In this document: positions 12,841-46,364 of the stretch, piece by piece
How the letters are laid out: every line of letters starts with the position of its first letter
Position numbering within the stretch: position 1 is the stretch's first letter
NCBI GenBank assembly: GCA_000146465.1
Contig: CP001950.1
DNA: 64,000 nucleotides
Strand: one strand, 5' to 3'
Position numbers and translations under genes: made by a program
The notes under the pieces: model-generated
Told to the model about the DNA's origin: nothing
Databases searched by the model: none
Seen by the model: only the letters and a program-made list of their open reading frames with translations

Positions 12841-13992
12841 TTAATGGACTTCGGCGACTGTTTCTGCCTTCTTTGCTCCGTAGAATGCCTTCTTCTCTGC
12901 ACTTGTCTGGAACCGCCCATGTCCTATCTTCGACGATGTGTCGACAAACTTGATCACAAGCTCCTCGCTCGGCCTCTGCTGTGTAAGACTCTTTCGAAGC
13001 GTCACAACCCTCTTCCGTGGCCCGACAACCGCCCCCTTCACCATGATGAAGTCGTTCTTCACTTCTCCATAGTGAGGGAATCCTCCCATCGGCGAAATCG
13101 CCTTCTCGGTTAGGTCAAACTCAGTCTTGATCTTGGTGCTTCCATTTCCAATCATGTACACCCTCTTGTTCTTCTCTGTTCTTCTATGGAACCCCATCTG
13201 CCCTGCTCGTGCAACAGAGTACATCACACGGCTCGGATGCCATGCTCCAATGCATGCAACCTTTCGGATCCCCTTTCGAGACTTGCGCGGCTGCTTTCGT
13301 ACTCCAAACCTCTTCACTGTTCCTTGGAATCCCTTTCCCTTCGTCACCCCAATCACATCGATGTTCTCATTCTCTCCAAACACCTCTGCAATCTGGATCT
13401 CCTTCTCAAGCCTCTCCAGAGCCCACTCAACCTTCTCGCAGATGCTTCCTCCATTCAACTGTATCTCCGCGATGTGTGCTTTCTTCAGCCCAAGTGTCTT
13501 CACCATCTCCGGCTGTGTCTGAACAAGTACTCGCACACACTCTGCCCTCTTCTTGATCTCTTCAACCCGGGACTCCGTCACTTCTCCTCGGCAGAACTGG
13601 GCCGCCGCCTCCTTCTCCATGTACTTGTTACCAAACATCCTGCGGAGAACTCCATCGTTCACATAGGATACCGTGACAATCGGGAGTCTGTGCAGTCCAG
13701 TCACAGTCCTCTCATATCCCACAATCCCATACACAACCATCGGCGGTGCTTCAACCACAGTCACTGCATCCATCACCTCCCTAGAAAGTTGCTTGTTCTT
13801 TGCAACCTGGGTCTTAGTCCTTATCACATGTGTCATCCCTGCCTTGTACCCCATAAATCCAGTCAGATGCACAGGCTGGGAGATATCGTCAGCCGGAAAC
13901 GCCCCTACAGACGGCCTGATTGTCTTCGATCTTTTCCTTGGGCAGAACTGCAAAGATCCATGTCTCGGTGCGTTGAACTTCCTGCAGCTCAT
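12841..13992 (-). CDS. RPL3: 60S ribosomal protein L3 (uL3)
   Basis: [22 protein letters not shown]...[13 protein letters not shown]...[18 protein letters not shown]...[13 protein letters not shown]. Full-length match to uL3. The annotated ATG at 13992 is preceded by the AAATTT+CCC promoter motif. Confidence 0.95.
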
Positions 13993-22059: not shown

Positions 22060-23571
22060 TTGTTTGTACAGATGGAAAACACAAGATGGATAAAAGCTGA
22101 AATTAAAAATGTAAACGATGGCTCTGTAGCCAGAGAAGTCTTGGCCAACGAGACAAATTCCTTTGTCAGAGAACTCAATCACTATGAAAAAAATCTTAAG
22201 GATATTCTTGAAGAACTAGAGAATCAAAACATAACTAACAAGGAAGAAGGAATTTCGTCCGTTAAGAAAGCCTTGGAGGTGTTAGAAACTCTTGAAAAAG
22301 ATGTCAGCTCAGCAGTTCCTGAAGAGACATCTATTTGGACGAAAGACTTTTTCAAAGCTGTTGATAGACTAAGAGATAGTTGTAATCTATCACTCAAGTC
22401 ACTTGAGGAGGCTCTTGAAAAATTTCTGGCCTATATTGATAATAACTCGGATCTAAAGGGAGATCTTTTGCAGAAGGCCAAGCTCATTCCCCTTCTGTGT
22501 GCATCTAGCAAGCTTAAAGAATTTTCTTCGGGTATAAGGAAGTCGGGGACCAATGCCTTTACGTGGTTTTTTAAGTTTGTTAGAAGGATTCCCGTCGAGA
22601 ATTTCAAGAAGAACATTAACTCGAGCTTAAATGGCCTAAAGGAAAAGATTTGCCGTGTATCTGGATCCCAAAGAGCAACAGGGAAGCAAGAAATCCGGGA
22701 GGCACAGAAGATTGTGGATTCTTTTTTACGCGATGTAACCGAACTTCAGGATGAATATGAGAAAACTCTTGGCCTTCTTATAAGATCGGAGATATCCTTT
22801 TCAGATGCATTTGAGACTATGCAGGGAAAGATAAGTAACTTTGATGGCCACATGAGTGATCTGGAAAAGAAGATTAAAGACATCGAAACAGCTTTCCAAC
22901 CCATCCTTCTTTCCAAGGAATCCCACGAAAGATCGTTGCCTGAAGATAGTTTTCTTAAGAACATATATCTTGTGTTGATAATTGTGTTATGCATACAGGG
23001 TGTTCTCTGGTACACAGACAATGAAAAGTCTTCTGCTGGAACTGTGTGGAACATGGTAGTGTACTCTGTGGCAGTTGTGGGGACGATTCTGTACATGGCC
23101 TGGGTGTGGGGATTTGGCGGAAGGAGATGGACTAGTGCTGCGAGCATGGTACCTATGATGGTTGGGCTTCTGAATTTGGGGAAGAGGGTGAGCTGTGAGT
23201 ACGGGATGGAGATGGCAGGGCTTGGGTTTGTAATGGTTTGTATGGAGAGTCTTGCAAGACACGGGATGTCATCATGGGAGATTTTGGCAGGATTGATCGG
23301 AAATGGAATTGTAGTGATGGGATGGGTCAGTTGGGCTACAATGAGGGATAGATATGGAGAGAGGATGAGCCAGTGGATGTGTGGGGGACTTATTGTGTTT
23401 GGAATTCTCATGGCTGTGATGATGTATATGAAGGAAGGGAGAAATGTGGAAAGGAGCACTGGAAGTTATATGGTGTTTATTATGACAGTGGTTGTTGGAA
23501 CAGCTGTGTCTTATGCATGTGGAAAGGATTACAGACAACTTGCATCTAAGAGAATGTCTCTGAAATCTTGA
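22060..23571 (+). CDS. lineage-specific family protein A: N-terminal coiled-coil/helical region plus C-terminal Gly/Met/Trp/Val-rich multi-TM domain
   Basis: 503-aa ORF, paralogous to 31371..32239 (shared blocks GISSVKKALEVLETLEKD / GINAVKETLDTLRRLKE and DVTELQDEYEKTLGLL / DVTELQDEYERIFGLL). The C-terminal 23000..23560 is strongly G+T-skewed DNA encoding 4-5 hydrophobic helices. Confidence 0.5.
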   Translation: MFVQMENTRWIKAEIKNVNDGSVAREVLANETNSFVRELNHYEKNLKDILEELENQNITNKEEGISSVKKALEVLETLEKDVSSAVPEETSIWTKDFFKAVDRLRDSCNLSLKSLEEALEKFLAYIDNNSDLKGDLLQKAKLIPLLCASSKLKEFSSGIRKSGTNAFTWFFKFVRRIPVENFKKNINSSLNGLKEKICRVSGSQRATGKQEIREAQKIVDSFLRDVTELQDEYEKTLGLLIRSEISFSDAFETMQGKISNFDGHMSDLEKKIKDIETAFQPILLSKESHERSLPEDSFLKNIYLVLIIVLCIQGVLWYTDNEKSSAGTVWNMVVYSVAVVGTILYMAWVWGFGGRRWTSAASMVPMMVGLLNLGKRVSCEYGMEMAGLGFVMVCMESLARHGMSSWEILAGLIGNGIVVMGWVSWATMRDRYGERMSQWMCGGLIVFGILMAVMMYMKEGRNVERSTGSYMVFIMTVVVGTAVSYACGKDYRQLASKRMSLKS

Positions 23572-23834: not shown

Positions 23835-24620
23835 ATGATTAGCATTTTATTCCTTGGCCATGCAGAAGCCGCAACGGGTATCCCTTCAGATCTCTGGGAT
23901 TCAGTAAACTACTATAGCCTCCTTTTGCCAAAGAGGCCTGAAGTGGCCTTGATCTTGTTTGTTGCGGGCCTCTTTGTGAATTTTCTGGGGATTCGTGCAA
24001 AAAGATGCTCTCTGTCTATGATCTCGTTCCCTTTACTTCGTCTGAGCATTGGAAGCATAATGAATGTGCTAAAGGAAATAGTTATAGATAAATATGGAAG
24101 CATATCCGAGGCTCCCCAGATGGTTAGGAATGGGCTTGAGATACTAAAGAAGGTGGACGAGAACAGATTCTTCATGATCTTTCTGTCTGTTGTTCTTGGG
24201 CTTGTGATGGTTTTCTTTGCCAAGGCTGTAATATACATCTTGATGGTATATCTTGCATTCCATCTGTGGGGAATACTGGAATCATCTGCCCAGGGGACAA
24301 TGGAAGGGAAACTGTATTACATTTACCAAACAATAATGTTATGCATTGGGATCTTGGTTCTGGTTCTTGTAAAGCCAATCACCTTCTTAATCTACATCCT
24401 CATCTTCTCTGTGTTTGGATCTCTCTTCATCATAGTCGGAGCCAATTTTGGATCTGGATTGAACCTCCATCTAAATCAATACATCGATATGCTTCGAAAA
24501 GGAGACTTCTATCAAGATCTGGTTGAGAATAAGATCTCTGTAGGATATATCTCCCTCGTGACGATGGGGACTATTTGCCAGATACTTCTTAGGAAGAAGC
24601 CCACGGCGAAGGCAAACTAA
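23835..24620 (+). CDS. hypothetical multi-pass membrane protein
   Basis: 261-aa ORF with 5-6 hydrophobic helices (LILFVAGLFVNFLGI, FMIFLSVVLGLVMVFFAKAVIYILMVYLAF, IMLCIGILVLVLV, FLIYILIFSVFGSLFIIVGA). Confidence 0.4.
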   Translation: MISILFLGHAEAATGIPSDLWDSVNYYSLLLPKRPEVALILFVAGLFVNFLGIRAKRCSLSMISFPLLRLSIGSIMNVLKEIVIDKYGSISEAPQMVRNGLEILKKVDENRFFMIFLSVVLGLVMVFFAKAVIYILMVYLAFHLWGILESSAQGTMEGKLYYIYQTIMLCIGILVLVLVKPITFLIYILIFSVFGSLFIIVGANFGSGLNLHLNQYIDMLRKGDFYQDLVENKISVGYISLVTMGTICQILLRKKPTAKAN

Positions 24621-24682
24621 ATGCCTCTGGGAAAGGAATTCATTTCTATATTAAAAGTTTTGGTATAATTTAATTGCCTTCC

Positions 24683-25795
24683 TCAGCACGGTGGATAAAA
24701 GCATCCAAAAAGAATTGCATATGCTATTCCAAATCCAAAGTAGAACCTGAACAGAACTTTTTTCCAGAGTCCGTTATTCATTGTGTAGTATTTTTCTGCC
24801 AGAATCCAATATATTAGAGGATTGAACGAGACAAATCTAAAGTACATGTTCCAATGAATCAAGAATACTGTGATAAGAGTTTGAGCCAGAAGGACAACCG
24901 CACACATGTCTGTGTTGAAGTGCTGAAGGATGCCAATGGCCTTGGAACTCCCTGCACATCTTTTGTTCCAGTACTCTCTGAGAATAAACAAAGAAATCAG
25001 GATGAATGGAAGCCCAACCAATACATTGGGGATGTTCTTGTATGTGAAGAATCGGAATAGTCCTTGTTCCCACAGGGTCCTCTGTATGAAAGAATAAGGA
25101 ATGAAGATTTTGTAGGTATTGTTAGCTCTGTTGATCATAAGCAGGGTGTAGTATTGAAATGCAGCAAGTGGAAGTAGAAATACAGCGATTTTTGTGAATG
25201 TATATCTACTTAAAGGACACATGAGAAATGGAGCAAATAAAACCGCATTCGATCTGCACAGGCCGCACAAAGACAAAAACAACACTCCGCGAACAGTGTC
25301 TCTGTTTTCTATGAAATACATTCCCAAGAGAAAGAGAAGCATGAACAAGGATTCCGAATACATGGCTGTGTACACTATAGATGCCGGGTTGAAAATGAAG
25401 AGGATACAGCTCATCGCTGCTATTTTGTTTCCGTACCTTTTTTGGGTGATCCTGTAGAGCAATGCAGAACTAAAGACAAAGGCTGTACACGAGACAAGAA
25501 CTCCCACTGTGTATGGATCTAGTGGAAGAACCTTGTGGATACAGCGGGATAGATACGGAAGAAGGGGAAAGAATGCAGCCTCATGGGTTTTCCTGTATCC
25601 TCTCTCCATGATCTCTAGGAAGTGAATGGAGTCCCACGAAAGGAGAAATTTCATACATGAGTTGCTGGGAATAAGTTCTGTGGATTTGTCAAAGCGAGGA
25701 AGAAGGAGATATGCAACATATGAGATACCTATGTAGAAGGCACGAGAGGCTGCTGCCAACCTGATTACTCCTTGAATGTTCGTGGCGAATGGCAT
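24683..25795 (-). CDS. GPI18: GPI mannosyltransferase 2 (PIG-V/GPI18 family)
   Basis: LSWDSIHFLEIMERGYRKTHEAAFFPLLP matches the PIG-V SHWDAEHFLFIAEHGY..EH.FAFFP motif. Also MYSESLFMLLFLLG, LCRSNAVL and AFQYYT blocks; multi-TM throughout. Confidence 0.7.
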   Translation of the reverse strand: MPFATNIQGVIRLAAASRAFYIGISYVAYLLLPRFDKSTELIPSNSCMKFLLSWDSIHFLEIMERGYRKTHEAAFFPLLPYLSRCIHKVLPLDPYTVGVLVSCTAFVFSSALLYRITQKRYGNKIAAMSCILFIFNPASIVYTAMYSESLFMLLFLLGMYFIENRDTVRGVLFLSLCGLCRSNAVLFAPFLMCPLSRYTFTKIAVFLLPLAAFQYYTLLMINRANNTYKIFIPYSFIQRTLWEQGLFRFFTYKNIPNVLVGLPFILISLFILREYWNKRCAGSSKAIGILQHFNTDMCAVVLLAQTLITVFLIHWNMYFRFVSFNPLIYWILAEKYYTMNNGLWKKVLFRFYFGFGIAYAILFGCFYPPC

Positions 25796-25861
25796 TCCAA
25801 TAGGGGAGCATCTTGGAATTTGTTTATCTCAACTTGTAAATTTTACAAGGTTACACACCCC

Positions 25862-26683
25862 ATGTTTGTTTTTCTTCTCCACCTGCTCGGATGTTTGTGC
25901 AGCGAACATGTCTTTATACAAGAGGCGTCGCTACTGTCGCCATATGTAGATGAGATTGGCAGGTTCCTCAACTGGAAGACATTTGGGGAGCAAGTAATAA
26001 AGGTCCATGGAAAGGATATGTTTGTACAGTTAGGATACTCGTCTCCAAATAGCTCTGGGGCTGTTGTGGCATCTCACCCCATAGGTTCTGAGAGGTTTGG
26101 GATGGATCTGATTATTGAGGTGGACTCTGGACAGAAAGGGGACACCAACGAGGGAATGGCCATATGGATATCTGATGAGGAAACGTTTAAGGAGGGGCCT
26201 TGTTTTGGGAGGTCATGTAGTTTCAAAGGCCTTTTGGTTGTCATAAAGCCCTCTGGAAAGTCTTATGTTGGGGTGAAGGCTGGTGATGTTATGATCAACA
26301 CCAGTAATATGGCCAAGAATTTTGACAAGGTTGAATACAGAGACTTTTCCTCTGGAGAGAAATTCGTTCTTAGAATTGAGCAAAAGGATTATGAGCTGTC
26401 TATATATATAGGAGAGGGGGAAGACTTCTCTCTTGTGCATTCTTACAGATACAATCTTGTAAAGGAAGGAGACCTTCTTGGGGTTTCTGCATCAACGGAC
26501 AGATCGTCGACTTCATTCAGGTTGATTGGAATTGAAAGTTACCATCTAAAGAACATGGAGGGCAAGGGATATGCAAAGGAAGATGTACACAGCGGTGGAA
26601 GACTTATTTGGTTTATCCTTGCAGTTGTAGTTTCAATAACCGCATACTACCTCTACAACATCCAAGTAAAAAAGGATAATTAA
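25862..26683 (+). CDS. L-type (legume-like) lectin domain cargo receptor (ERGIC-53/Emp46/47-like), type I membrane protein
   Basis: Signal peptide MFVFLLHLLGCLC. Lectin-fold blocks EGMAIWISDEETFKEGPCFGRSCSFKGLLVVI and GVSASTDRSSTSFRL. C-terminal TM LIWFILAVVVSITAYYLY plus a short tail. Confidence 0.55.
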   Translation: MFVFLLHLLGCLCSEHVFIQEASLLSPYVDEIGRFLNWKTFGEQVIKVHGKDMFVQLGYSSPNSSGAVVASHPIGSERFGMDLIIEVDSGQKGDTNEGMAIWISDEETFKEGPCFGRSCSFKGLLVVIKPSGKSYVGVKAGDVMINTSNMAKNFDKVEYRDFSSGEKFVLRIEQKDYELSIYIGEGEDFSLVHSYRYNLVKEGDLLGVSASTDRSSTSFRLIGIESYHLKNMEGKGYAKEDVHSGGRLIWFILAVVVSITAYYLYNIQVKKDN

Positions 26684-26922
26684 CTTCTAGTCCTTCTATT
26701 CTATAGTCTTTAAGCTGTACTTAATCATCCAACACCCCGAATTTGGAACTTCGGAAATATTCTCCCAACCGGTGCCAAATAGAACAAGAGGTCTTTCTAC
26801 AAGGAGAGGTGGCAGTCCAGTGGAGGATCTCCTCGAAAACTACTTCTAGTTGGGTAGATTCGAGAGTAGCCATTGTTGGCTTGATCCCACCAGACAAAGG
26901 GGCAGGGTAGATCCTATTTCGT

Positions 26923-28545
26923 GTGGGCCCTTTGGATGGAAGGGCCTGGAGAGCAGCGGAGGGCATGTGTTCTCCGGCAATAGAGGGCCCTGGTGAATTC
27001 ATCGAGTTCCTGAAGCCCCTGATGATTGAAAGTCCTGCAATAAAAAAGTTTATTGTTAATTACTTTATTGAACACAGCCAAGAGAACATTGATGATATAG
27101 CAGCCAGGATCGACGGATGTCTTCGGAAGAGGTTTGTGGAGAACGAGGTGGTGTCTGTTGTAAGGTCTGGGGAGTGGGGAAGGATTTCTCGAGTGGCTGG
27201 AGACAGGTATGTTGTAAGCATCCTGTCTCTAGATGGAGGGCGAGAGGAAAGGCTCCACTTTTCGGAGCTTGCAAGGAAGGACATGGCGGGGCGGACGGAG
27301 GTCAAGGGATATCTGCTTGGGATAACAATGGAAACTCCTTTTGGACGGGTGCTGAAGGAGAATGCATTCCGAAGCATAAGAGACTCTGGGGAAGTGATGA
27401 AATGCAAGGTTCCACAGAGCCAGTGCTATGAAGGGAGTTTTGTGTCTCGGAGGGGTGTTGGGGGGACGGAGAGAAGGAAATGGAAGACGGAGAAGGAAGG
27501 GCAAGGCTCGAGAGAGAAGAACGAGGAAAGGGAGACAGAGGGCAGTAGGGCGAAGCGGGCCTCCGTGCGAAAGGAGGGGACGAAGGAGACGAGTGTGAGT
27601 TCGATCCTCTTGGTGGGGCCTTCGCAGGCTCTGGAGATCCCGGGGCTTAGGAAGGAAGATATCGAGCTAGTGATGAAGATCTTTGGAGTGGTAGCAAACT
27701 TCGGGGGGTTTTTTGGGATCCAAGAGATTGATGTTTTGTCGCTAGGGAGGGCTATTGTTGATCCTTGGTATGAGGATGATACGATATGCAAGATCCATTT
27801 GAAGCTGATCTCTGGACTTCGGACAGAAATGGATTCTGTGGGGATGGAGGAGTTTGTGGAGAACAGCAAGGCATGCATTGAATGGGCCAAGGAGCAAGGA
27901 AGGGAGGAGGATTTGGCTGGAGATGGGGGGGAGATGGAGGAGTGTCTTGAACAGTCTCTGGGCTGTGGGGAAGAGGGCTGGAAGAAAGACCTAAGGAAGC
28001 TTATTGAGAGTATTTGCGATGATGGGGACACAGACATTTTTGGTATTGTGAGGAGCATCTCTGGAAGGAGCAGGGCTCTTGGGAGGGGAGAGATAAGAAA
28101 GAGGCTTGTTGTGATTGAGCTGCTGATGAACATGTTCTTTACAACAGAACAGTTCCGAGAGATTATATGGGAGAAGATGGAGGAGTCGAAGGATCTTGAG
28201 AAGAAGAAGAGGGAGCTCCAGACAAGGCTTAAGAGGAGTGTGGGATGGGATGGAGAGAGCAAGGAGGCAGGAGAAGGCTCTCGAGCCGAGATGGAGAAGG
28301 AGCTTGGGGACACAAGAGAGAAGATATTCCAGCTTCCTGTGAATACTGGGGTTGGAACTGTGGATGGGGTTGGGCTTCTTCATCTTGGGAGGAAGATCTA
28401 TGCAGCCTGGGAAGGAGACTACTATTTGGTGGGGAGAGACAGGCTGGCAGATCTATGTAAGAAATATAAGGCAAAGAACAAAGAGGAGAGACATGTGCTG
28501 GAAAGCATAGGACAGAACATAGAAGGGTTGAAAGGCCATCTTTGA
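26923..28545 (+). CDS. hypothetical nuclear protein with possible DDT domain (ISWI-accessory-like) in a purine/GC-rich block
   Basis: 540-aa ORF. IPGLRKEDIELVMKIFGVVANFGGFFGIQEIDVLSLGRAIV resembles a DDT domain. The N-terminal barrel-like segment VVSVVRSGEWGRISRVAGDRYVVSIL is followed by charged low-complexity. Confidence 0.4.
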   Translation: MGPLDGRAWRAAEGMCSPAIEGPGEFIEFLKPLMIESPAIKKFIVNYFIEHSQENIDDIAARIDGCLRKRFVENEVVSVVRSGEWGRISRVAGDRYVVSILSLDGGREERLHFSELARKDMAGRTEVKGYLLGITMETPFGRVLKENAFRSIRDSGEVMKCKVPQSQCYEGSFVSRRGVGGTERRKWKTEKEGQGSREKNEERETEGSRAKRASVRKEGTKETSVSSILLVGPSQALEIPGLRKEDIELVMKIFGVVANFGGFFGIQEIDVLSLGRAIVDPWYEDDTICKIHLKLISGLRTEMDSVGMEEFVENSKACIEWAKEQGREEDLAGDGGEMEECLEQSLGCGEEGWKKDLRKLIESICDDGDTDIFGIVRSISGRSRALGRGEIRKRLVVIELLMNMFFTTEQFREIIWEKMEESKDLEKKKRELQTRLKRSVGWDGESKEAGEGSRAEMEKELGDTREKIFQLPVNTGVGTVDGVGLLHLGRKIYAAWEGDYYLVGRDRLADLCKKYKAKNKEERHVLESIGQNIEGLKGHL

Positions 28546-28567
28546 CTGTCTGTTTGTTTATGATGTA

Positions 28568-30010
28568 TTGGAAGGGGTTTTATCTGTGAGTAAACAACCA
28601 ATACAAATGGAAAGGCAGAGATTTACAAACCTGCTGAAGGATGGAGAGAGAGGGATTCCTCCGGAGTACAGCATGAGCTTGGGGAAACACTCTGTGACTG
28701 TGCGGAACCTAAAGAAAAAGTATCTTATAAACAAGATTACATTGCTAGACATCTACAACTACTACAGAACCCCGTTATCGGTATACACATCACAGAAGAT
28801 CAGGAACATGTTCGTAACGGCATCTCTGTGTCTTACTGTGTATCTGGCATCGAACATAGATTCAATCAGAAGCAACAAGATTCCGAGGCTTGGAGTAAAC
28901 TTCTCGTCTGCAGCCCTGGTTATTGGCGGGGTGTTTGTTGGCAGGGAGGCGATTTCGTATGCGATCAACTTCAGGAAGATGGTGTCTATATTCTACATGT
29001 ACAGATACATTCTGGAGAGAGACATGGAGGAGATCCGGTTCAAGGATGTTGTGTCGGGGATGATCAAGCTGGAAAGAGAGGTGCACAACAGAGACCTGGA
29101 GGAGAAGGATGTGCGGGACATTGTGAACCATAACAGGCTACTCCTTCTGTTGATGATGAGGAAGTTTCCTTCGATATTCCGGCCGGCATGTTCCAGGTTC
29201 CTGCTGCACATCCTCCATGGCTACATCCACAGAATAGAAGAGGGCCCTGTGGAAGAGCTGGGAGACGAGATCCGGGTGGTTTCGATTGGAATCTTCATAT
29301 TGTCCCCGGCGATTTCGATCTTCTTTATTCTGTACTACATTGCAAAGATCATAGAAAAGTCCCAGAGCAATATGTTCTATGTGTTCAAGAAGTCCCACAG
29401 GCCGTGGTTCAAGTACATGATGGCCAAAAGAAACGAGTATCCACACGAAACACACAGGAAGATACAGAAGGGAGCTGGATATCTAAACGGATTTTTTCTT
29501 TCAAGAAAGAGAGACTGCATCCCAAGGGTCTGCTCTGGGATCTCGTTTCTTCTGAGCTGTCTTGTGTTTCTGGTTGGATATCTTATTCTGAGCATCTTGG
29601 TTGCATCCAAGCCAAACCTGAGCCAGAGCCTTTCCCAGGATATAACTGTCTTTGGGAGGACAACAAACATAGTGTATCTCTCGTACCTCATGGGGGGAAT
29701 ATCCTGCTGCCTGAGATGTCTCAGCATCGAGTATGGGGTTTCGAACCGTCGAAAGATGTTTGCCAAGTGGTGTGTGCTGATGGAGCAGACGGAGGTGCTG
29801 AAGTACTGTGGAAGGCGGGGATCCCTTGAGGCGATTATGTCGAAGATCTTTGTTCCGCGTATATATTTATTTCTTGTAGAGATAGTGTCTCCATTTATTG
29901 TTCCTTTCCAGTTGGAAGGAATGAGAAGGAGGTTGGAGAGGATCCGGCAGGAGTTTGAATCTGTGGGGGAGGGGGAGTACGACAGGCGGGTCTCGATCCT
30001 TGATCTATGA
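28568..30010 (+). CDS. polytopic membrane protein, weakly Atg9-like
   Basis: LLDIYNYYRTPLSVYTSQKIRNMFVTASLCLTVYL resembles the Atg9 core LDxFLxxVYxYYxGxG...L; then FKDVVSGMIKLEREVHNRDLEEKDVRDIVNHNRLL (compare Atg9 W.EV..RI..LQ......LDAHDIANRIMRKENY). Multiple TM helices. The assignment is tentative. Confidence 0.4.
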   Translation: MEGVLSVSKQPIQMERQRFTNLLKDGERGIPPEYSMSLGKHSVTVRNLKKKYLINKITLLDIYNYYRTPLSVYTSQKIRNMFVTASLCLTVYLASNIDSIRSNKIPRLGVNFSSAALVIGGVFVGREAISYAINFRKMVSIFYMYRYILERDMEEIRFKDVVSGMIKLEREVHNRDLEEKDVRDIVNHNRLLLLLMMRKFPSIFRPACSRFLLHILHGYIHRIEEGPVEELGDEIRVVSIGIFILSPAISIFFILYYIAKIIEKSQSNMFYVFKKSHRPWFKYMMAKRNEYPHETHRKIQKGAGYLNGFFLSRKRDCIPRVCSGISFLLSCLVFLVGYLILSILVASKPNLSQSLSQDITVFGRTTNIVYLSYLMGGISCCLRCLSIEYGVSNRRKMFAKWCVLMEQTEVLKYCGRRGSLEAIMSKIFVPRIYLFLVEIVSPFIVPFQLEGMRRRLERIRQEFESVGEGEYDRRVSILDL

Positions 30011-30037
30011 CGGGAGGAAACACGGCATGGATCATAT

Positions 30038-31171
30038 TCACAGATTGATTTCTTTGTGGGGTTCCAGAACACCCAGGTCTCGGAGCTTGTCGCTCACCAC
30101 AGATGCCTTGACAACATACTTACTTCCAAATCTTCTTACAAGCTCTCCGAGATCTTTACAGCGAAGAAGCTCTTTTTCAAGTTCCCCCAAAAGCTCTTCG
30201 GGAAATACTTCGCGCTCTACTAGTGGAAGAGAAATCCAGGAGGAGCAGAATGACGGAAATATAGTAAACTTACAGGAAGGAAATCCAAGACATGGCTTCC
30301 GACATGTTCTAGATGGCTCCATCCTTTCCGAATCCAACTCTATCCATTCACAACTACTTTCTTCCTCCGAAGATTCCTCTTCTGTGCTTTCAATAACTTC
30401 TGCATCCTCGCAATCTTCCCAATCAGAATCTTCCTCGTAGTCTAAAACTTGTGGAAGCCTTGTAAGGCTGTTTTTCACATAATGTTTCTGTCCTCCAAAT
30501 CCATAGAGAGGTGGCCTAAGCTGGTTGGAAAATTTGATGAAGGATAATCTTCTTGGATCTTGAATGTCTTTTCTTATGCGTATTGTGGAACTGAGAGGAC
30601 TCGAAGGCATGCTGACTGCTGTCTCCTTGTCGAAGCATATTGGGGAAAATAGTCCAAGCATATCCGCCGAAGGCTTCTTTATGCCTTCTACCTGAATAAA
30701 TCTCAGCATACCAGAAGTGTTTGCTTCTTCTTTTTCTGTATCTCTCTCCAAGCCAGAAATCCCTTTATCTTTAGCTTTTTTCTTTCTCGCTCTCTTCAAT
30801 AGGCTTCGAACACCTTTAGAGATTCCATCAAGGCTCTTAAGAAAGTATATATTTCCCTCTCCACTTACTTCCACATCGAAATTGGACTCAACAGCCTTCT
30901 TCAGACTATTTACTCTGTCTTTTCTCCTCTTCGACGTTTTTTTATACGAATATAGGATTTTGTCCATCCAATAGTAGTCCACCTTCTGCTTCCCTTCTAC
31001 TAGGAGAGCTATAAGATCTAGAGGAACCTCTTCTTCTCGTCCTCTCTTCCACTCATGCAGAATCTTTAGCACTTCCGGATGGAATAAAACATCCGTAATC
31101 ATAAAAAGGATAAGAATAAAACAATATAAAGATATTGGGAAGATACAATGGCAATATGTTCTTTCTACCAA
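30038..31171 (-). CDS. chromatin assembly factor 1 large subunit (CAF-1 p150/Cac1-like)
   Basis: RPPLYGFGGQKHYVKNSLTRLPQVLDYEEDSDWEDCEDAEVIESTEEESSEEESS matches the CAF-1 p150 block RPAYYGTWRKRSK...LLDYEVDSDEEWEEEEPGESL (ED domain). A K/R-rich KER-like segment lies upstream. The true start may be the internal Met (31102). Confidence 0.55.
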   Translation of the reverse strand: MVERTYCHCIFPISLYCFILILFMITDVLFHPEVLKILHEWKRGREEEVPLDLIALLVEGKQKVDYYWMDKILYSYKKTSKRRKDRVNSLKKAVESNFDVEVSGEGNIYFLKSLDGISKGVRSLLKRARKKKAKDKGISGLERDTEKEEANTSGMLRFIQVEGIKKPSADMLGLFSPICFDKETAVSMPSSPLSSTIRIRKDIQDPRRLSFIKFSNQLRPPLYGFGGQKHYVKNSLTRLPQVLDYEEDSDWEDCEDAEVIESTEEESSEEESSCEWIELDSERMEPSRTCRKPCLGFPSCKFTIFPSFCSSWISLPLVEREVFPEELLGELEKELLRCKDLGELVRRFGSKYVVKASVVSDKLRDLGVLEPHKEINL

Positions 31172-31370
31172 ATACTTCCCATCATACCCACAGTTTCATG
31201 GGGATTATATGAAGGATACCCTGGCTCTTCCCCTTCTTTAGACAAGAATAAGCATCCAACTAAAAGCCCCTCTTCAAGTTCCGGCCCCTTTAAAGCCAAA
31301 CCGCCAAGGATGTTTTTACTAAACAGTTGTCCACTATTCTTATGATTCCCCTTCTAATTGGCCAATTATA

Positions 31371-32239
31371 GTGAGGACTCCCACATACGCTCCAATAGCA
31401 GTGCCCTTAATGAATCATATCAACCGTATCCGAGATATACTCATCAACCTTGATTCACAAAGCTCTCTTCATGAAGAAACAGTTGCAGAATGTGCATTGG
31501 TATATTATTATAATGCTGTAAGTAAGTTTCTGAATGGAATCCTCTTCTATGAGGAGAAGTTAAATGAAGTCTTGGAGTCTTTGAACAACAAGCTCAATTC
31601 ACAGAGTGAAAAGGGAATTAACGCGGTCAAAGAAACTCTGGACACACTTCGTAGGCTTAAGGAGACAATACAACCTAAAATCGAATGTCCTTTTAACCAA
31701 CTTTCTCATCCTCCAGAACTAACAAATATTGAAATCCTCGAGTACAACTTCAAAACTTTTGAAGAGTACTTCAAAGCAATCGATAGAATGGTTTCTTCGG
31801 AAGGACAGATTCCATTTGAAGAGTTCAAGGATGCACTCAGGAATGTCTTGCCATATGTCGATTATCCACTGACCCACAGTACAGGATCCCATTCTATTGT
31901 TCTCAAAAACGTATTTCTTCAACTCTTGGGGGAGTATAATGTCTCTGCTGTATTTGAAAATACCTGTCTCAATAAGTATTATGAAAACTTAAGAATAATA
32001 GGAAGAAAAGTTCTCCAGAAGCATTTTGAATCTCTCATAAAAAGTCTTGTCTCAGAAAACTGGAAAAACGAAATAGAAAAGGAACTAAGTGCTTTGGAAA
32101 GGGAGGTATCCCTGGCGTATAAACATCAAAGGAAAAGAATAGAACAAGGAATCCAAGATGCTCGAGCTGTCTTAAACTCCCTTTCTCAGGATGTAACCGA
32201 ACTTCAGGATGAATATGAGAGAATTTTTGGCCTTCTTAT
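31371..32239 (+). CDS. lineage-specific family protein B (paralog of 22060..23571), 3' end lost in assembly gap
   Basis: The N-terminal helical region is collinear with family member A. The ORF runs into the N-run at 32240. Confidence 0.45.
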
Positions 32240-32339
32240 NNNNNNNNNNNNNNNNNNNNNNNNNNNNNNNNNNNNNNNNNNNNNNNNNNNNNNNNNNNNN
32301 NNNNNNNNNNNNNNNNNNNNNNNNNNNNNNNNNNNNNNN
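32240..32339. other. assembly gap (100 N)
   Basis: Run of exactly 100 n characters. Confidence 0.99.
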
Positions 32340-32408
32340 CAGGTCTCGGAGCTTGTCACTCACCACAGATGCCTTAACAATATACTTGTAGGATATGTAT
32401 TTCTTCAT
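32340..32408 (-). pseudogene. duplicated 3'-terminal fragment of the CAF-1-like gene (copy of 30074..30121)
   Basis: 32340..32387 matches 30074..30121 at 45 of 48 nt. It encodes ...KYIVKASVVSDKLRDL, identical to the C-terminus ...KYVVKASVVSDKLRDL of 30038..31171, then diverges. Confidence 0.5.
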
Positions 32409-32654
32409 AGAATATTGGAATAGTATGCATTGGAAAGGGTGGAGTAGCTTGCATCTAAGAGGACATCCTCGAAGTCCTGAGTGTAGTATTCTTGATTATT
32501 AAATATAATTAAAAACTATGCATTGGAAGTATTGGAGGTTAATTATCCTTTTTTACTTGAGTGTTGCAAAGATATGCGATTATCAGGACTACACTATGGA
32601 TCCAACAAGGAGGCCTTTCCCTTGTATGGATTCTGAAGAATCCCAGAGAGATCA

Positions 32655-33188
32655 TTATTCTTTTTTAGATTGACTTTCTAAGAACCTGTTCTGCACTTCC
32701 ACCACTTCAGCACTTGACGTGCACTTGGAGTACTCCTCAAGAAGATCTTCATTTAACTTGTAGAATTCATTTCCATAATTAAATTCGTTAAGAATCTCAT
32801 AGGCTTCCTCTTTGAAGCCACAGATATACAGCGAAGCACTCAGTGCCTCGGCACAGTTCAGCTTAAAAGGCTTGCCATAGTTTACCGGGTTTGCTGCAAC
32901 CATAAACGGAAGAAGCCTGTTGTGCTTCCTTGGAAGCCTTTTAAAGTCCACAGAGTCTAACTGTGCCCATGAACAGTCTATAAGCCCTATTCCAAATCTT
33001 TCTATGACGTCTCTGTCTGCAGGAGAGATAGACTGATCTGCATCTGGAGAAAGAACCACTCCTTTGAAGTTTTTATTCTTTTTTATTGGCTCAATCTTGT
33101 TCTGTTTGATAAGTTTCTTCCCAGAACACTTTTTTGGATCGCACTGCTCAAACTCGTAGATTATCTTCCTCATCCCAGGACTACCCAA
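32655..33188 (-). CDS. TSR3: TSR3, 18S rRNA aminocarboxypropyltransferase (DUF367)
   Basis: FEQCDPKKCSGKKL, GVVLSPDADQSISPADRDVIERFGIGLIDCSWAQLD, RLLPFMVAANPVNYGKPFKLNCAEAL are all Tsr3 hallmark blocks. Confidence 0.85.
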   Translation of the reverse strand: MGSPGMRKIIYEFEQCDPKKCSGKKLIKQNKIEPIKKNKNFKGVVLSPDADQSISPADRDVIERFGIGLIDCSWAQLDSVDFKRLPRKHNRLLPFMVAANPVNYGKPFKLNCAEALSASLYICGFKEEAYEILNEFNYGNEFYKLNEDLLEEYSKCTSSAEVVEVQNRFLESQSKKE

Positions 33189-33204
33189 TTATAAAGACTT
33201 TATT

Positions 33205-34404
33205 CTATGCAGAAGAGACAGAAAGGTTCTTGCTATCCCTTTCCATACTTTCGTCAGGCTCCAGAATCCCCTCAACCATTTTTCTGAAGTTCTCGTACCC
33301 TATCTTGTAGATATTTCCCTTCTCTTGGTAAAAAGATGGCTCTCCCCCAACAGCAACCACCCTTGCATCCTCCTTTCTCTGTATTTCTTTGTACACATCA
33401 AACGAAACATCCTTCGTCGAAACCACCGTTCTTATGTCGAAACTCGAATATTCAAAGAAAAGAAGCTCGGCAAGAATCTGAGGAAGAGGACGGGCAGAGA
33501 CAAAGTAGACTGTCTGCTTTGTTCTATGGAGCTTCACAACAGAGTCGTATAGACGTGTTATTCGGCTTTTAAGTAGCCTATCTACACTGTAGAAAAGAGG
33601 CGTGCATGTAAACTTGAACCTTTCTGAGCTGTTAAATATCCTTTCAAACCGATGGTATTTGTCCCTCTTCAAGTTCCGAAGTGTAGTTGCTTCATGGCCT
33701 TCTCCTCCGTCTTCCTCACCCAAGCTCCCGAGGGTGATGATTCTAGAGCAACTGTTGTCGATGCAAAATAGAATGTCTCTGATCTCGGAGATTCTTCTTG
33801 ATGTCTCTTCCTTTGCCTGGCATCTTAGCCCTCCAATTCCAAATATGGGATCAAGATCAATCACAAATACACTTCGGACACTAGTCAACCCATCCTTGAT
33901 TTCGCACACCTCTTTGGTGGTTATTTCAGGGAGCTCAATTAGAAGTGACTTTATCTCTTCTTTTGTGTCGCTTGCTTTGTTGAATTCCCTCTTGATCATC
34001 TTGTCTCTTCTTCTGTCTGCTTCAATCTTAGATATTATAAATGAGTTTTCCGTATCTTCAAACATCTTCTCGTAATTTTTCATGCATTGGAAGTGCTTCT
34101 TCACATCCTCAAATTTCTCCCTCCTAATCAGGCCCATCTTATAGAGGTAGTAATATGTTGAGTACACATATTGATTGATGTTCTTCCTGTCCTCAATGGA
34201 GGGAACGAGTTCATCTGCAGGTGCCTCTACAGCTTCAATCAACCTTACTATAGCAGTGTTCCTTTTTGTCCCAAGTAAGCTTCGGACTTGGTCCCTTAGA
34301 GGCTGCTGGATCATCTTCGTTCTTATCTGCTCCTTGTTGTCATTTACAAATGCTTTGTCCTTGCATCTTTCCAAGAGATCCGAAATGTCCATTCCCTTTT
34401 CCAT
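33205..34404 (-). CDS. hypothetical protein (possible PIN/NYN-like nuclease fold; weak)
   Basis: 399-aa ORF. VRSVFVIDLDPIFGIGG and a later acidic cluster hint at a PIN/NYN-type fold; this is not secure. Confidence 0.35.
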   Translation of the reverse strand: MEKGMDISDLLERCKDKAFVNDNKEQIRTKMIQQPLRDQVRSLLGTKRNTAIVRLIEAVEAPADELVPSIEDRKNINQYVYSTYYYLYKMGLIRREKFEDVKKHFQCMKNYEKMFEDTENSFIISKIEADRRRDKMIKREFNKASDTKEEIKSLLIELPEITTKEVCEIKDGLTSVRSVFVIDLDPIFGIGGLRCQAKEETSRRISEIRDILFCIDNSCSRIITLGSLGEEDGGEGHEATTLRNLKRDKYHRFERIFNSSERFKFTCTPLFYSVDRLLKSRITRLYDSVVKLHRTKQTVYFVSARPLPQILAELLFFEYSSFDIRTVVSTKDVSFDVYKEIQRKEDARVVAVGGEPSFYQEKGNIYKIGYENFRKMVEGILEPDESMERDSKNLSVSSA

Positions 34405-34467
34405 TCAAAGGGCTTTGTAAATTCCTGCTTTGTTGGTGCCTCTTCCCTCTTCAACCACATCATTCCT

Positions 34468-35100
34468 TCACTTCTCCAGAACAACAAATAGACTCTCCTC
34501 CTCAGGCCCATGGTCTAGAACCTTGAATCCGGAAGATTTGCAGAGCTCCACCAAATCCTCCATGCCATAAAGATGGTAGTATCTCTTGGCATCATCCCTG
34601 AGATTCCATGTTGCAAAATAGTCCTGTTCAGATCCTCCGATGATCTTCGAAAACTTCCTCTTTCCACTTACAGAACTTCCCCACACATATACTAGCATCT
34701 TGCCTCCATCTCTCAGGACCCTTCTCATCTCCTCCATCGCCTTCTTCCTCCTACAATCAGTACTAAGATGATGGATCACCCCGACACTCAGCACAAGATC
34801 AAAGCTACAATCTACAAAGGGAAGCTCCAAAACATCTCCTCGGATCAGCCCATAGTTCTTTACAGCCTTCCCGTCTCTCAAGAGACCCCAGCAGTAATCC
34901 AACCCGACTATTCCCGGCACCAGAAACGATCTTCCGTTTCCACATCCAGCATCAAGCACAATAGAATCGGCTGTCCAGTACCTGTCCAGGAAGGTTTCTG
35001 TCATCTTCCAATGCTTCCTCCTTGTTGCCGAAAACTCCCTCGAGTTTTCATTGTAGAATTTGTGTACAAACTCTCCTTCAAACTCGTTTGGATCTTCCAT
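34468..35100 (-). CDS. TRM9: SAM-dependent methyltransferase, tRNA wobble-uridine methyltransferase TRM9-like
   Basis: VHKFYNENSREFSATRRKHW, IVLDAGCGNGRS (motif I), CSFDLVLSVGVIHHLST, LRDGGKMLVYVWG. Collinear with Trm9/ALKBH8 MTase domains. Confidence 0.7.
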   Translation of the reverse strand: MEDPNEFEGEFVHKFYNENSREFSATRRKHWKMTETFLDRYWTADSIVLDAGCGNGRSFLVPGIVGLDYCWGLLRDGKAVKNYGLIRGDVLELPFVDCSFDLVLSVGVIHHLSTDCRRKKAMEEMRRVLRDGGKMLVYVWGSSVSGKRKFSKIIGGSEQDYFATWNLRDDAKRYYHLYGMEDLVELCKSSGFKVLDHGPEEESLFVVLEK

Positions 35101-36662: not shown

Positions 36663-37505
36663 ATGAAGTACAAAATAACATCGAAGAGACTTGATGAGAA
36701 GATCCTGGCAGTTCATGTGAACGGGGCTGTTTACACAGGCGGAACATCTAGGACATTGGTCAACCAGGATACTGGAGAAGTGATGTGCCGGTGCCGGAAG
36801 TCGATAAGATCAATAGCAAGCCATGGAAGGTACATATGCTGTGCAAGCTATGATTGCACTGCAGTGCTGTTCCACGACGGGAAGGTTGTAGATGTCATCG
36901 AGGGCCCAGACACAGAGATCAAATGTGTTGGATTTTCCGAGGATGGACGGTATCTAGCCATGGCTACACGAGGAAAGTCGGTGTGGGTGGTGAAGATAGA
37001 CCCCGAGATAGAAATCGACGAGATTATAGAGGATCATCTTCATGATGTAAAGGGTTGTGTGTTCCATAAGGGATTTCTATTTACATATGGATACGACAAC
37101 ACAATAAAGATCTACGAAAGGTTTGACTACGATGACTCCTGGGAACTTGTGCAGTCGATCAGTGAGAAAAATACAGTATGGTGTGTTATATTTCACGGGG
37201 ATAAAATGGTATGTTCCACCGAGGAAGGGACGATCAGCTCGTATGTGCTGAGAAATGGGTGGGAGCTCGAGGCATGCAAGAAGTTGTCGATATTTCCTAT
37301 CTATTCGATTTGTAGTGTTGGGAGGGATATGGCATACGTTTTGAACAGAAACAACATCGGGATTATCGACAGTAACCTGAACCTTACCACGACTATTGAG
37401 GATATACATGAAGACTTCATAAATGGAATTGCATATGATGAAGGACGAGGCAGGATAATCAGTGGAGGAGACGATGGGATTCTGAATGTGATCGAGATGT
37501 TTTAG
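36663..37505 (+). CDS. CIA1: cytosolic iron-sulfur assembly protein CIA1/CIAO1 (WD40)
   Basis: EGPDTEIKCVGFSEDGRYLAMATRGKSVWVVKIDPE..E..IEDHLHDVKGCVFH...YDNTIKIYERFDYDDSWELVQSISEKNTVWCVIFHGD matches the CIAO1 pattern EGHENEVK..KSVWVW..H.QDVK..SYDDT.K.Y...DW...GH.STVW. Confidence 0.75.
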   Translation: MKYKITSKRLDEKILAVHVNGAVYTGGTSRTLVNQDTGEVMCRCRKSIRSIASHGRYICCASYDCTAVLFHDGKVVDVIEGPDTEIKCVGFSEDGRYLAMATRGKSVWVVKIDPEIEIDEIIEDHLHDVKGCVFHKGFLFTYGYDNTIKIYERFDYDDSWELVQSISEKNTVWCVIFHGDKMVCSTEEGTISSYVLRNGWELEACKKLSIFPIYSICSVGRDMAYVLNRNNIGIIDSNLNLTTTIEDIHEDFINGIAYDEGRGRIISGGDDGILNVIEMF

Positions 37506-38267: not shown

Positions 38268-39131
38268 ATGTCTTGCTTTGACTCCACGCTTGTGGTGGAA
38301 ACAGACGCAGTGAAGGATTTCAAGCTTCCCCACACACGGCAGATGATTCTTGTGAAGAATGTGTCTTCTATCCAGAGTTCCCCATTTCCCAAGTATCTCC
38401 ATGTGTTTGGTAGAAGCTGTATGTCCTATCAGCTTGCTCCATTCAAGTTGCTCAGAACTTTTGAGTACAGCGAAGATGTGATGGATGCAGTGGCCATCCG
38501 AGGCAAGATGGCTGTTCTCTCTAGAGACTCGATAGTTGTCTGGAACAAAGGGAAAGAGCAAGTTATTGCAGGGAAGTTTGATGGAAGACTCTCAGAAGTA
38601 GACGGGTGCCTCGGAGTTCAGGAACGGGCCAAGTTGTCGGTGTATTCGTTGGAGACGTTGGAGGTGATGAAGGTGTACAAGGCAAATGCCCACTGTTCAA
38701 TAAGAGACGTGCTTGTGACATCTCTGGATAATCTGGTTTCTTTGTACTTCAAGGGGGGAAAGATACTTGAGATTTCGATGCCGGAGGCAATATGTAAGCT
38801 GTGCACCGACCCACTACTTACAAACATATACTGTGGAACAGGTAGTGGAACCATATTCTGCTGCAACACAAGCAATGGAGAGCCAAGTAGTATGAAGTAC
38901 CATAGAAGCCAGGTTGTGGGGCTGGGCATAAGTTTCTGTGGAAAGTACTTGTACTCTGCAGACATGGAGGGTCTTGTGTGCATATGGGATACAAAGTTCA
39001 ACACGGTGGTTGGAAAAGTGTCCATGGAGTCGGAAATAAGGAGGATGAAAGTGGTATATGTCTCCGAGTGGAGAAAAGCTCTGGACACGCCAGAGGATGA
39101 TCTAATAATTCCAGGGGGGACAACAAAATAA
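38268..39131 (+). CDS. WD40-repeat protein (hypothetical)
   Basis: C-terminal WD-like repeat GLVCIWDTKFNTVVGKV and earlier beta-propeller-like repeats. Start placed at Met of MSCFDS. Confidence 0.45.
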   Translation: MSCFDSTLVVETDAVKDFKLPHTRQMILVKNVSSIQSSPFPKYLHVFGRSCMSYQLAPFKLLRTFEYSEDVMDAVAIRGKMAVLSRDSIVVWNKGKEQVIAGKFDGRLSEVDGCLGVQERAKLSVYSLETLEVMKVYKANAHCSIRDVLVTSLDNLVSLYFKGGKILEISMPEAICKLCTDPLLTNIYCGTGSGTIFCCNTSNGEPSSMKYHRSQVVGLGISFCGKYLYSADMEGLVCIWDTKFNTVVGKVSMESEIRRMKVVYVSEWRKALDTPEDDLIIPGGTTK

Positions 39132-46133: not shown

Positions 46134-46201
46134 AGGGCTGTCACCTTAGGATGTTTGAACTTTATAATAAATCAGCTTCTATGTCTGAAAATGCAAAAGG
46201 A

Positions 46202-46274
46202 CGTTCCGGGTGGGACTCGAACCCACGACCTCAGCTTTAGGAGAGCCGCGCTCTACCAACTGAGCTACAGGAAC
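46202..46274 (-). tRNA. tRNA-Arg (anticodon CCU)
   Basis: The minus strand folds as GTTCCTG / TA / GCTC-AGTTGGTA-GAGC / G / CGGCT-CTCCTAA-AGCTG / AGGTC / GTGGG-TTCGAGT-CCCAC / CCGGAAC-G. The 7-nt loop has CCT at positions 34-36. One U6:C67 acceptor-stem mismatch. Internal A/B-box-like GGTAGAGC and GGTTCGAGTCC are present. Confidence 0.8.
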
Positions 46275-46364
46275 TGTACCATGGCAGGGGAGGTTCCATC
46301 ACGCCGACTCTGCCTGGACGGGGATTCTAAAGGATACATTGTGCCACCAAACACTATCCCCAGG

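Follow-up and report, generated by a model that had tools for sequence, protein, structure and literature searches.

The two genes considered here lie side by side on chromosome IX of Encephalitozoon intestinalis ATCC 50506, in a stretch of 64,000 nucleotides (nt) from assembly GCA_000146465.1 (contig CP001950.1) that was analysed over its full length and is called the window below. The first open reading frame (ORF1) encodes a DUF5097 protein, the second (ORF2) a very divergent, core-only member of the ATG9 family, and together they coincide with a G-rich compositional island. A sequence-only reading of this DNA had announced two frames of 540 and 480 amino acids (aa), both of which were found, ORF2 being 100% identical to Eint_091140 and ORF1 100% identical to the E. 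intestinalis protein named 'DUF5097 domain-containing protein'. The locus is organized as follows (GC3, GC content at third codon positions):

26923-28545, plus strand: longest ORF1 frame, 540 aa from GTG
28568-30010, plus strand: longest ORF2 frame, 480 aa from TTG
26684..27021: spacer 5' of ORF1, 338 bp, GC 0.50, high for local intergenic DNA
27022..28545, plus strand: ORF1, DUF5097 protein, GC 0.50, G 0.37, with an ATG common to all orthologues
28546..28606: spacer between the co-oriented ORF1 and ORF2, 61 bp, GC 0.34
28607..30010, plus strand: ORF2, minimal ATG9 (Eint_091140), 467 aa, GC3 0.63, the highest in the window
30038..31102, minus strand: CAF1A-like gene (chromatin assembly factor 1 subunit A dimerisation domain), convergent with ORF2

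Orthologue alignments place the likely true starts at ATG 27022 for ORF1 (507 aa) and at ATG 28607 for ORF2 (467 aa). ORF2 ends 27 bp from the end of the CAF1A-like gene, and 338 bp separate the end of a legume-lectin-like gene from ORF1; compared with E. romaleae and E. cuniculi, the GC-rich spacer upstream of ORF1 is conserved only over the ~45 bp adjoining the start codon, and a check of it for a hidden gene or RNA gave no conserved ORF and no Rfam or tRNA match. The public ATG9 models of E. intestinalis (start 28847, 400 aa) and of E. cuniculi GB-M1 (410 aa) both lack a conserved ~66-aa N-terminus, which carries the IYxYY motif. The E. intestinalis frame is open throughout this N-terminus (28607-28846) from ATG 28607. 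In E. cuniculi GB-M1 the N-terminus stands in another frame, with a 1-nt disruption near ...PLSV/YTSQK..., whereas the frame of E. cuniculi strain LFTZ01 is uninterrupted at this site; the region concerned lies at L002 ~9930-10010 and L003 9760-10000, L002 and L003 being the two E. cuniculi strains compared. The disruption reflects either an error in sequencing or a frameshift particular to the strain. The corrected gene models restore the conserved N-terminus in both species.

The likeness to Atg9 that the sequence-only reading had seen in the N-terminal core and in a later segment of ORF2 holds up, as does the Pfam check proposed with it: the ATG9 (APG9) model PF04109 matches ORF2 at 50.5 bits, above its gathering cutoff of 27 (E=2.2e-13), in two stretches, and all ORF2 orthologues carry a precomputed PF04109 assignment. 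Word-indexed searches, with a single sequence as with a profile, retrieved homologues of ORF2 and of ORF1 only from Encephalitozoon/Ordospora relatives. A profile of eight Encephalitozoon/Ordospora orthologues had human ATG9A as its sole meaningful match among PDB sequences, in three collinear segments, and after addition of two more microsporidian sequences it reached ATG9A at E=2.7e-7 and fission-yeast Atg9 (7D0I) at E=0.013. An exhaustive HMMER search of 1.84 billion representatives with the Encephalitozoon family profile returned 4 proteins only, namely two close relatives, an ATG9 of Astathelohania contejeani (Pfam E=3e-23) and a canonical ATG9 of 1130 aa (Pfam E=6e-161); the ORF2 family is thus extremely divergent, and outside its own clade it matches ATG9s only. 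When ten microsporidian sequences were aligned to this canonical ATG9 with hhalign, the probability was 97.8% (E=9e-13, 275 columns), and a permissive alignment was collinear over 413 columns, pairing query positions 6-467 with canonical positions 421-909, which is nearly the span of the canonical Pfam domain (439-908). The landmarks of the ATG9 core can be placed on ORF2 in order:

28745..28768, plus strand: LLDIYNYY motif, start of the ATG9 core, pairing with canonical LLRIYEYY
28808..28942, plus strand: hydrophobic segments 1 and 2 (aa 68-84 and 95-112), paired with the first two of the canonical core and separated by a loop of ~10 aa
29267..29356, plus strand: hydrophobic segment 3 (aa 221-250, ...FILSPAISIFFILYY...), aligned to human ATG9A ~285-315 (...FLLCPLILIWQILY...), which we take to be the first re-entrant region
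29432..29452, plus strand: NEYPHET motif, aligned to canonical NELPH and human ATG9A NELEHE
29516..29725, plus strand: hydrophobic segments 4 and 5 (aa 304-338 and ~352-373)
29834..29917, plus strand: hydrophobic segment 6 (aa 410-437, ...LFLVEIVSPFIVPFQL...), aligned to human ATG9A 458-491 (...FILEELLSPIVTPLIL...), presumably the second re-entrant region

Five of these six segments exceed the hydropathy threshold, each falling on its canonical counterpart, and the one at ~352-373 is sub-threshold and present in the orthologues. ATG9A/Atg9 structures have four transmembrane plus two re-entrant segments, two classes that the present mapping, made by hydropathy alone, does not distinguish. Three sets of motifs are shared by ORF2, the canonical protein and human ATG9A (in this order): ILSPAISIFFILYY / VLSPFIAIGLLIYF / FLLCPLILIWQILY, NEYPHE / NELPH / NELEHE, and LFLVEIVSPFIVPFQL / LFLQEVLSVFLIPYFL / FILEELLSPIVTPLIL. 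P279 and H280 of ORF2 are invariant in 10/10 microsporidian sequences, and the segment FKDVV...HNRDL...NHNRLL pairs with human ATG9A residues ~175-225. Judged by these profile matches and alignments, ORF2 is a genuine, very divergent, core-only member of the ATG9 family. This identity is already known, since 'Autophagy-related protein 9' is the UniRef name of the proteins from E. intestinalis, E. romaleae and E. cuniculi, and also the NCBI name of the Astathelohania protein; a literature search found no paper on a microsporidian Atg9.

To our knowledge, ATG9 is the sole integral-membrane protein of the core autophagy machinery, and the tails of the yeast and human proteins bear sorting signals and the sites that Atg1 phosphorylates, and make the contacts with Atg11/Atg13-Atg101 and Atg2-Atg18. 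ORF2 has ~46 aa before the IYNYY motif and ~30 aa after the last hydrophobic segment, whereas 438 aa precede and 220 aa follow the core in the canonical comparator, the 467 aa of ORF2 corresponding in all to a core of ~470 aa. In the ATG9 fold the homotrimer is domain-swapped and has lateral as well as central cavities. By homology with ATG9A and yeast Atg9, the protein would most likely be a trimer residing in Golgi-derived or other endomembrane vesicles, and would most likely scramble phospholipids between leaflets, so that lipid supplied to one leaflet could then expand the membrane; the scrambling of lipids by Atg9/ATG9A on Golgi-derived vesicles is well established (PMC8161075). E. cuniculi is reported to lack Atg8 conjugation and to have lost the majority, not all, of its autophagy machinery. 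Because the tails that link ATG9 to this machinery are absent, and because Atg8 conjugation is reportedly lacking, we infer that ORF2 may act in general membrane biogenesis rather than in classical autophagy. A more specific and only tentative idea, which we consider possible at well below even odds, is that the tail-less ATG9 would be an orphan of dismantled autophagy, kept as a stand-alone scramblase for parasite membranes such as the Golgi-like tubular network, the polaroplast and the polar-tube; if true, this would be natural evidence for an essential role of ATG9 that is independent of Atg8 and of the autophagosome.

The same literature statement can be turned the other way, since a loss of 'the majority' of the E. 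cuniculi machinery is not a loss of all of it, and an ATG8-independent degradative pathway has recently been proposed for Giardia. The Atg9 homologue might then still serve a degradative, ATG8-independent pathway resembling autophagy, but ORF2 is devoid of the tails that bind the Atg1 complex, Atg13 and Atg2-Atg18, and this alternative seems unlikely. Could the gene instead have lost all function and be decaying, as a remnant of lost autophagy? Its extreme divergence from canonical ATG9, the loss of both tails, the reported loss of most of autophagy, and the frame disruption in the E. cuniculi GB-M1 reference might suggest so, but the ORFs are intact in eight relatives, with a mean column identity of 71% across eight species, and many columns are invariant, including the SP, PH and SPF..P motifs common to canonical ATG9. 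Between E. hellem and E. romaleae, the ratio of non-synonymous to synonymous divergence (dN/dS) is ~0.07 for ATG9, as low as for PIG-V, with 0.19 for DUF5097 and 0.14 for CAF1A, all these values being approximate because synonymous divergence between the species is saturated or nearly so. A second E. cuniculi strain also reads through the disrupted site, and the gene is kept in the distant Astathelohania, so that decay appears highly improbable.

The neighbouring ORF1 is defined by its N-terminus, which matches the Pfam DUF5097 model (PF17020) over its full length at aa 1-119 (114 bits for a cutoff of 29.7, E=5e-33). This is its sole curated match, and the model is also matched by 8/8 orthologues. 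Homologues of ORF1 are confined to Encephalitozoon/Ordospora and evolve fast (30-52% identity), and a literature search found no paper mentioning DUF5097. Three parts of the protein, as modelled with AlphaFold2 (AF2) and aligned with its orthologues, are of interest here:

27022..27378, plus strand: DUF5097 domain (aa 1-119), predicted by AF2 as two helices, a five-stranded small beta-barrel and two helices
27352..27585, plus strand: disordered, poorly conserved G/E/R/K-rich linker (aa 111-188)
27658..27828, plus strand: DDT-like helical block (aa 213-269, DIELVMKIFGVVANFGGFFGIQEIDVLSLGRAIVDP...)

The predicted local distance difference test score (pLDDT) of the AF2 model is 74 overall and 80-93 in the structured blocks; in the DUF5097 domain it reaches 81-90 over aa 1-100 and is at most 58 beyond. 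The barrel predicted in this domain resembles KOW/Tudor/PWWP/SH3-like barrels. After the linker, the model runs through a helical domain (190-297), a loop, and a helical/coiled-coil region (317-507) ending in a four-strand sheet plus helices. A Foldseek search of the model against the PDB gave nothing below E=0.15 and small-barrel matches only, and the profile of ORF1 orthologues gave spurious low-complexity matches only among PDB sequences.

The sequence-only reading had described ORF1 as a charged protein with a DDT-like block, of which the first part stands, as glutamate, glycine, arginine and lysine (E+G+R+K) make up 0.40 of its residues, and the second in part only. The Pfam DDT model (PF02791) does not match the ORF1 protein, even when the fragment is taken in isolation, whereas three orthologues score 21.5, 20.6 and 18.6 bits, just under the cutoff of 22, over model positions 2-58 of 58, and all three sub-threshold matches map to the same site, aa 213-269 of ORF1. 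A DDT-like block is therefore plausible and partly supported, yet not established. No Pfam match to WHIM1, WSD or WAC was obtained at E<=10 in 8 orthologues or in C-terminal fragments; two stretches, ...LLELLLNMFFTT..FRE... and ...G.IDG..FL......IYA...YY..., look like WHIM motifs, by eye only. The helical half of ORF1 is probably a degenerate DDT/WHIM-type module, of the kind that docks on ISWI remodellers, and by analogy with such proteins ORF1 might bind ISWI as an accessory subunit. This likeness provides a first functional lead for the DUF5097 family.

Both genes stand out by their composition, and the purine- and GC-rich island that had been noticed from about 26.9 to 30 kb is confirmed when the segment 26900-30010 is ranked against all 3.1-kb segments of the 64-kb stretch. 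Its GC content (0.487, for a mean of 0.434 and a standard deviation of 0.016) and its G content (0.323, for a mean of 0.234 and a standard deviation of 0.031) are both the maximum of the window, its purine content (0.594) is in the top 1.1%, and the density of GGG, GAG and AGG words (0.114 vs 0.063±0.013) in the top 0.3%; the quantitative check suggested at the outset thus finds a composition that is not uniform. In a 300-bp profile, G amounts to 0.33-0.40 over 27.0-28.5 kb and 0.24-0.34 over 28.8-30.0 kb, then falls sharply at 30.0 kb, where the coding strand switches.

An atypical composition may suggest recently acquired DNA, and horizontal transfer was considered for this reason, as it had been in the sequence-only reading. 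The block DUF5097, ATG9 and convergent CAF1A is however found in the same order and orientation in 6/6 related genomes examined, those of E. hellem (L001), the two E. cuniculi strains (L002 and L003), E. romaleae (L005), Ordospora pajunii (L006) and a GC-rich relative (L007). Both orthologues are ordinary in composition for their genomes in E. hellem, E. romaleae and O. pajunii. ATG9 is moreover a eukaryotic family that Astathelohania, a distant microsporidian, has as well, both families are microsporidian or eukaryotic, and no tRNA or mobile element was found flanking the block. Transfer, which has in its favour the extreme GC and G values and the rearranged flanks of the block between species, was accordingly rejected, and we hold it to be almost certainly wrong: both genes are vertically inherited. 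The shift itself is real and partly synonymous, as detailed below, recent acquisition being the part of the earlier proposal that falls.

The surroundings of the block (window 23835-35100 in E. intestinalis) vary among species. E. intestinalis has a lectin gene 5' of DUF5097, E. romaleae a 261-aa gene, E. hellem Noc2, E. cuniculi DUF1686 and Ordospora thioredoxin, and these species-specific neighbours indicate a recurrent synteny breakpoint. On the other side, E. hellem, E. romaleae and Ordospora retain a run of CAF1A, two ~300-aa genes, a ~650-aa gene, RING, Rpp14 and pyruvate kinase, which is broken after CAF1A in E. intestinalis and in E. cuniculi. A DUF1686 family gene (22072-23571, plus strand) lies ~3.5 kb upstream of the E. 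intestinalis block; in E. cuniculi, DUF1686 genes are present on both sides of it (L002 6253-7902 and 13066-14664), ~27-48 kb from a chromosome end. The GC-rich relative (Logan SRR21023581, 164 kb; GC 0.53, GC3 ~0.66) has the same block with Ordospora-type flanks, and its ATG9 has a GC3 of 0.79.

How much of the enrichment is dictated by the proteins can be estimated from the 53 gene models of the window, by comparing their observed composition to that expected from their amino acids under window-average codon usage. For ORF1, the amino acids alone give a GC content of 0.469, above the window gene mean of 0.437, and a G content of 0.324, well above the window mean; as the observed GC is 0.500, about half of the excess comes from a G/E/R/K-rich protein and about half is synonymous. 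The local peak of composition is the disordered linker at aa 111-188 (GC 0.56, G 0.42, and 0.53 for G at third codon positions), and an acidic loop contributes as well. For ORF2, in contrast, the expected GC is below average (0.416) and the observed value above it (0.470), so that the whole excess is synonymous. An island resulting purely from amino-acid composition, with a charged, glycine-rich protein written in GAG, GGN and AGG codons, would fit the E+G+R+K content of ORF1 and the coincidence of its peaks with the linker and the loop, but it accounts neither for the synonymous half of ORF1 nor for ORF2, whose E+G+R+K content is average (0.27, for a window mean of 0.29) in spite of its high GC3 and four-fold G; as a sole cause it is improbable, the amino-acid effect being shown to be insufficient for ORF2 and a true but partial cause for ORF1.

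The synonymous component has a distinctive signature. At four-fold degenerate sites, G reaches 0.40 in ORF1 and 0.44 in ORF2 for a mean of 0.24 (z scores of 2.7 and 3.3), and C is low (0.08 and 0.13, respectively), which makes the shift strand-asymmetric, G being raised and C lowered on the coding strand. Among purine-ending two-fold codons, 75-77% end in G in the two genes (mean 59%). Ranked by synonymous G excess, the first three of the 53 genes are RPL3 (0.044), ORF1 (0.042) and ORF2 (0.037), followed by a fourth gene at 0.021. Besides ORF1 and ORF2, a single gene of the window has the synonymous signature of the island, namely that of ribosomal protein L3 (RPL3; 12841-13992, minus strand; GC 0.52, GC3 0.61, 85% G in purine-ending two-fold codons). 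At the opposite end, the CAF1A-like gene has the lowest GC3 (0.39) and the lowest fraction of G-ending codons (0.43) of all 53, so the two compositional extremes of the window adjoin. The DUF5097 orthologue of E. cuniculi goes further still (GC 0.58, GC3 0.66, four-fold G 0.46), and the ATG9 of this species is ordinary. The island reflects a synonymous shift to G-ending codons in two adjacent transcription units, a shift that is derived and specific to lineage and gene, and the G/E/R/K-rich linkers of ORF1 add their half of the excess of that gene.

Two causes may be proposed for this shift. One, put forward tentatively and with somewhat more credence than the next, would be linked to expression, through selection for G-ending codons or through transcription-associated, strand-asymmetric mutation, possibly on a shared ORF1-ORF2 transcript. 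It is favoured by the RPL3-like signature, the strand asymmetry and the sharp edges at gene boundaries, notably at the convergent CAF1A-like gene 27 bp away, and ORF1 and ORF2 are co-oriented with a spacer of 61 bp only. Only two highly expressed reference genes were found in the window, RPL3 and an eIF5A-like gene, and the latter shows no net synonymous excess. Furthermore, the shift affects the DUF5097 orthologue only in E. cuniculi and neither gene in three other species, and high expression would not be expected a priori for a chromatin accessory protein and an Atg9.

A second cause would be regional, with a mutational or biased-gene-conversion effect acquired once the block had reached a new chromosomal context. 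The signature is restricted to E. intestinalis and E. cuniculi, the two species whose block is cut off from its ancestral downstream neighbours and has DUF1686 genes in its vicinity, and the upstream spacers of these two species are GC-rich (0.50 and 0.52, vs 0.39-0.41 in E. hellem and E. romaleae); it is this link with rearrangement, together with the spacers, that speaks for a regional cause. Biased gene conversion should however lift G and C alike and spill into neighbouring genes, whereas C drops at the four-fold sites of ORF1 and the adjoining CAF1A-like gene has the lowest GC3 of the window, and the correlation with rearrangement concerns two species only. We consider a regional origin doubtful.

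Taken together, the best account of the locus is that of two ordinary, vertically inherited genes, a core-only ATG9 and a DUF5097 protein, whose G-rich island is intrinsic to the genes, and we give it a probability of roughly 0.75. Several results weigh against it, or against parts of it. A single-sequence phmmer search of ORF2 against the PDB gave no match, the identity of ORF2 to canonical ATG9 is only ~21%, and the AF2 model of ORF2, built from 8 sequences (mean pLDDT 41, predicted TM-score 0.22), is unreliable for fold, trimer or pore. The GB-M1 disruption, which falls in the conserved ATG9 N-terminus, would imply some tolerance to damage if real, and the non-autophagic role leans on two statements from the literature. 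As to the island, the behaviour of the eIF5A-like gene leaves the link with expression resting on one ribosomal-protein gene, and the confinement of the signature to the DUF5097 gene in E. cuniculi fits poorly with one shared transcript.

Elsewhere in the window, a P4-type phospholipid-translocating ATPase (flippase) of 1097 aa is encoded at 40007-43300 (plus strand), ~10 kb downstream of the ATG9 gene; like the activity proposed for ORF2, this enzyme bears on how lipids are distributed across leaflets. A tRNA-Arg(CCT) (46202-46274, minus strand) covers the initial ~28 codons of the longest frame of a TIP49/RuvB-like gene (46191-47645, plus strand), whose Pfam domain begins at aa 64, so that the real start is probably downstream of the tRNA. 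An assembly gap of 100 N (32240-32339) lies inside the ORF at 31371-32423 (plus strand), and this gene model is therefore incomplete in the assembly. Finally, the ORFs at 36663-37505 and 38268-39131 (plus strand), 760 bp apart, both give generic WD40 beta-propeller matches, and may be either one gene split by a frameshift or gap, or two genes.

The island of this locus is a codon-usage phenomenon and not foreign DNA, and its two genes are ordinary and vertically inherited. Autophagy-independent roles of ATG9 are an active question, and here strong constraint maintains a core-only ATG9 of ~467 aa in organisms that reportedly lack Atg8 lipidation and most other ATG genes. This combination of a bare core, constraint and reported loss of partners makes it a natural minimal ATG9, useful without its disordered tails for structural and biochemical work, and for asking what ATG9 does in the absence of autophagosomes. 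Although the annotation exists, the biology of microsporidian ATG9 is unexplored in the literature searched, and this core-only ATG9, putatively an orphan, is the under-explored angle of this locus.

Set against known systems, ORF1 differs from the DDT/WHIM accessory subunits of ISWI (Ioc3, 2Y9Z; Itc1/ACF1/BAZ) by the lack of a DDT match, which in orthologues stays below the cutoff, by the lack of WHIM1, WSD and WAC matches and of any PHD or bromodomain, and by an N-terminus made of DUF5097 with its small Tudor/KOW-like barrel. With highly expressed ribosomal-protein genes, the island shares G-rich two-fold codons of the RPL3 type and four-fold sites high in G and low in C, but it consists of two adjacent non-ribosomal genes, and its shift is lineage-specific and absent in most orthologues. 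ORF2 resembles the ATG9 family (human ATG9A, 6WQZ/6WR4/7JLO; fission-yeast Atg9, 7D0I) in its collinear core, with six hydrophobic segments in order, IYxYY, (L/C)SP in the first re-entrant region, NE(L/Y)(P/E)H, and E(E/I)(L/V)SP(I/F)(V)(T)P in the last re-entrant region, and differs from it in its length (467 aa vs 839-1130 aa), in the absence of long disordered tails, in the very short loop between hydrophobic segments 1 and 2, and in belonging to an organism reported to lack Atg8 conjugation. A parallel in architecture is the ATG9 of Astathelohania (Thelohania) contejeani (KAF7684610.1): although it is only 21% identical to ORF2 and its gene is not beside DUF5097 or CAF1A genes, it is likewise a short (507 aa), tail-less microsporidian ATG9, and, being found by the Encephalitozoon profile at E=2.3e-14 and matched by Pfam ATG9 at 83 bits, it bridges the Encephalitozoon proteins to canonical ATG9.

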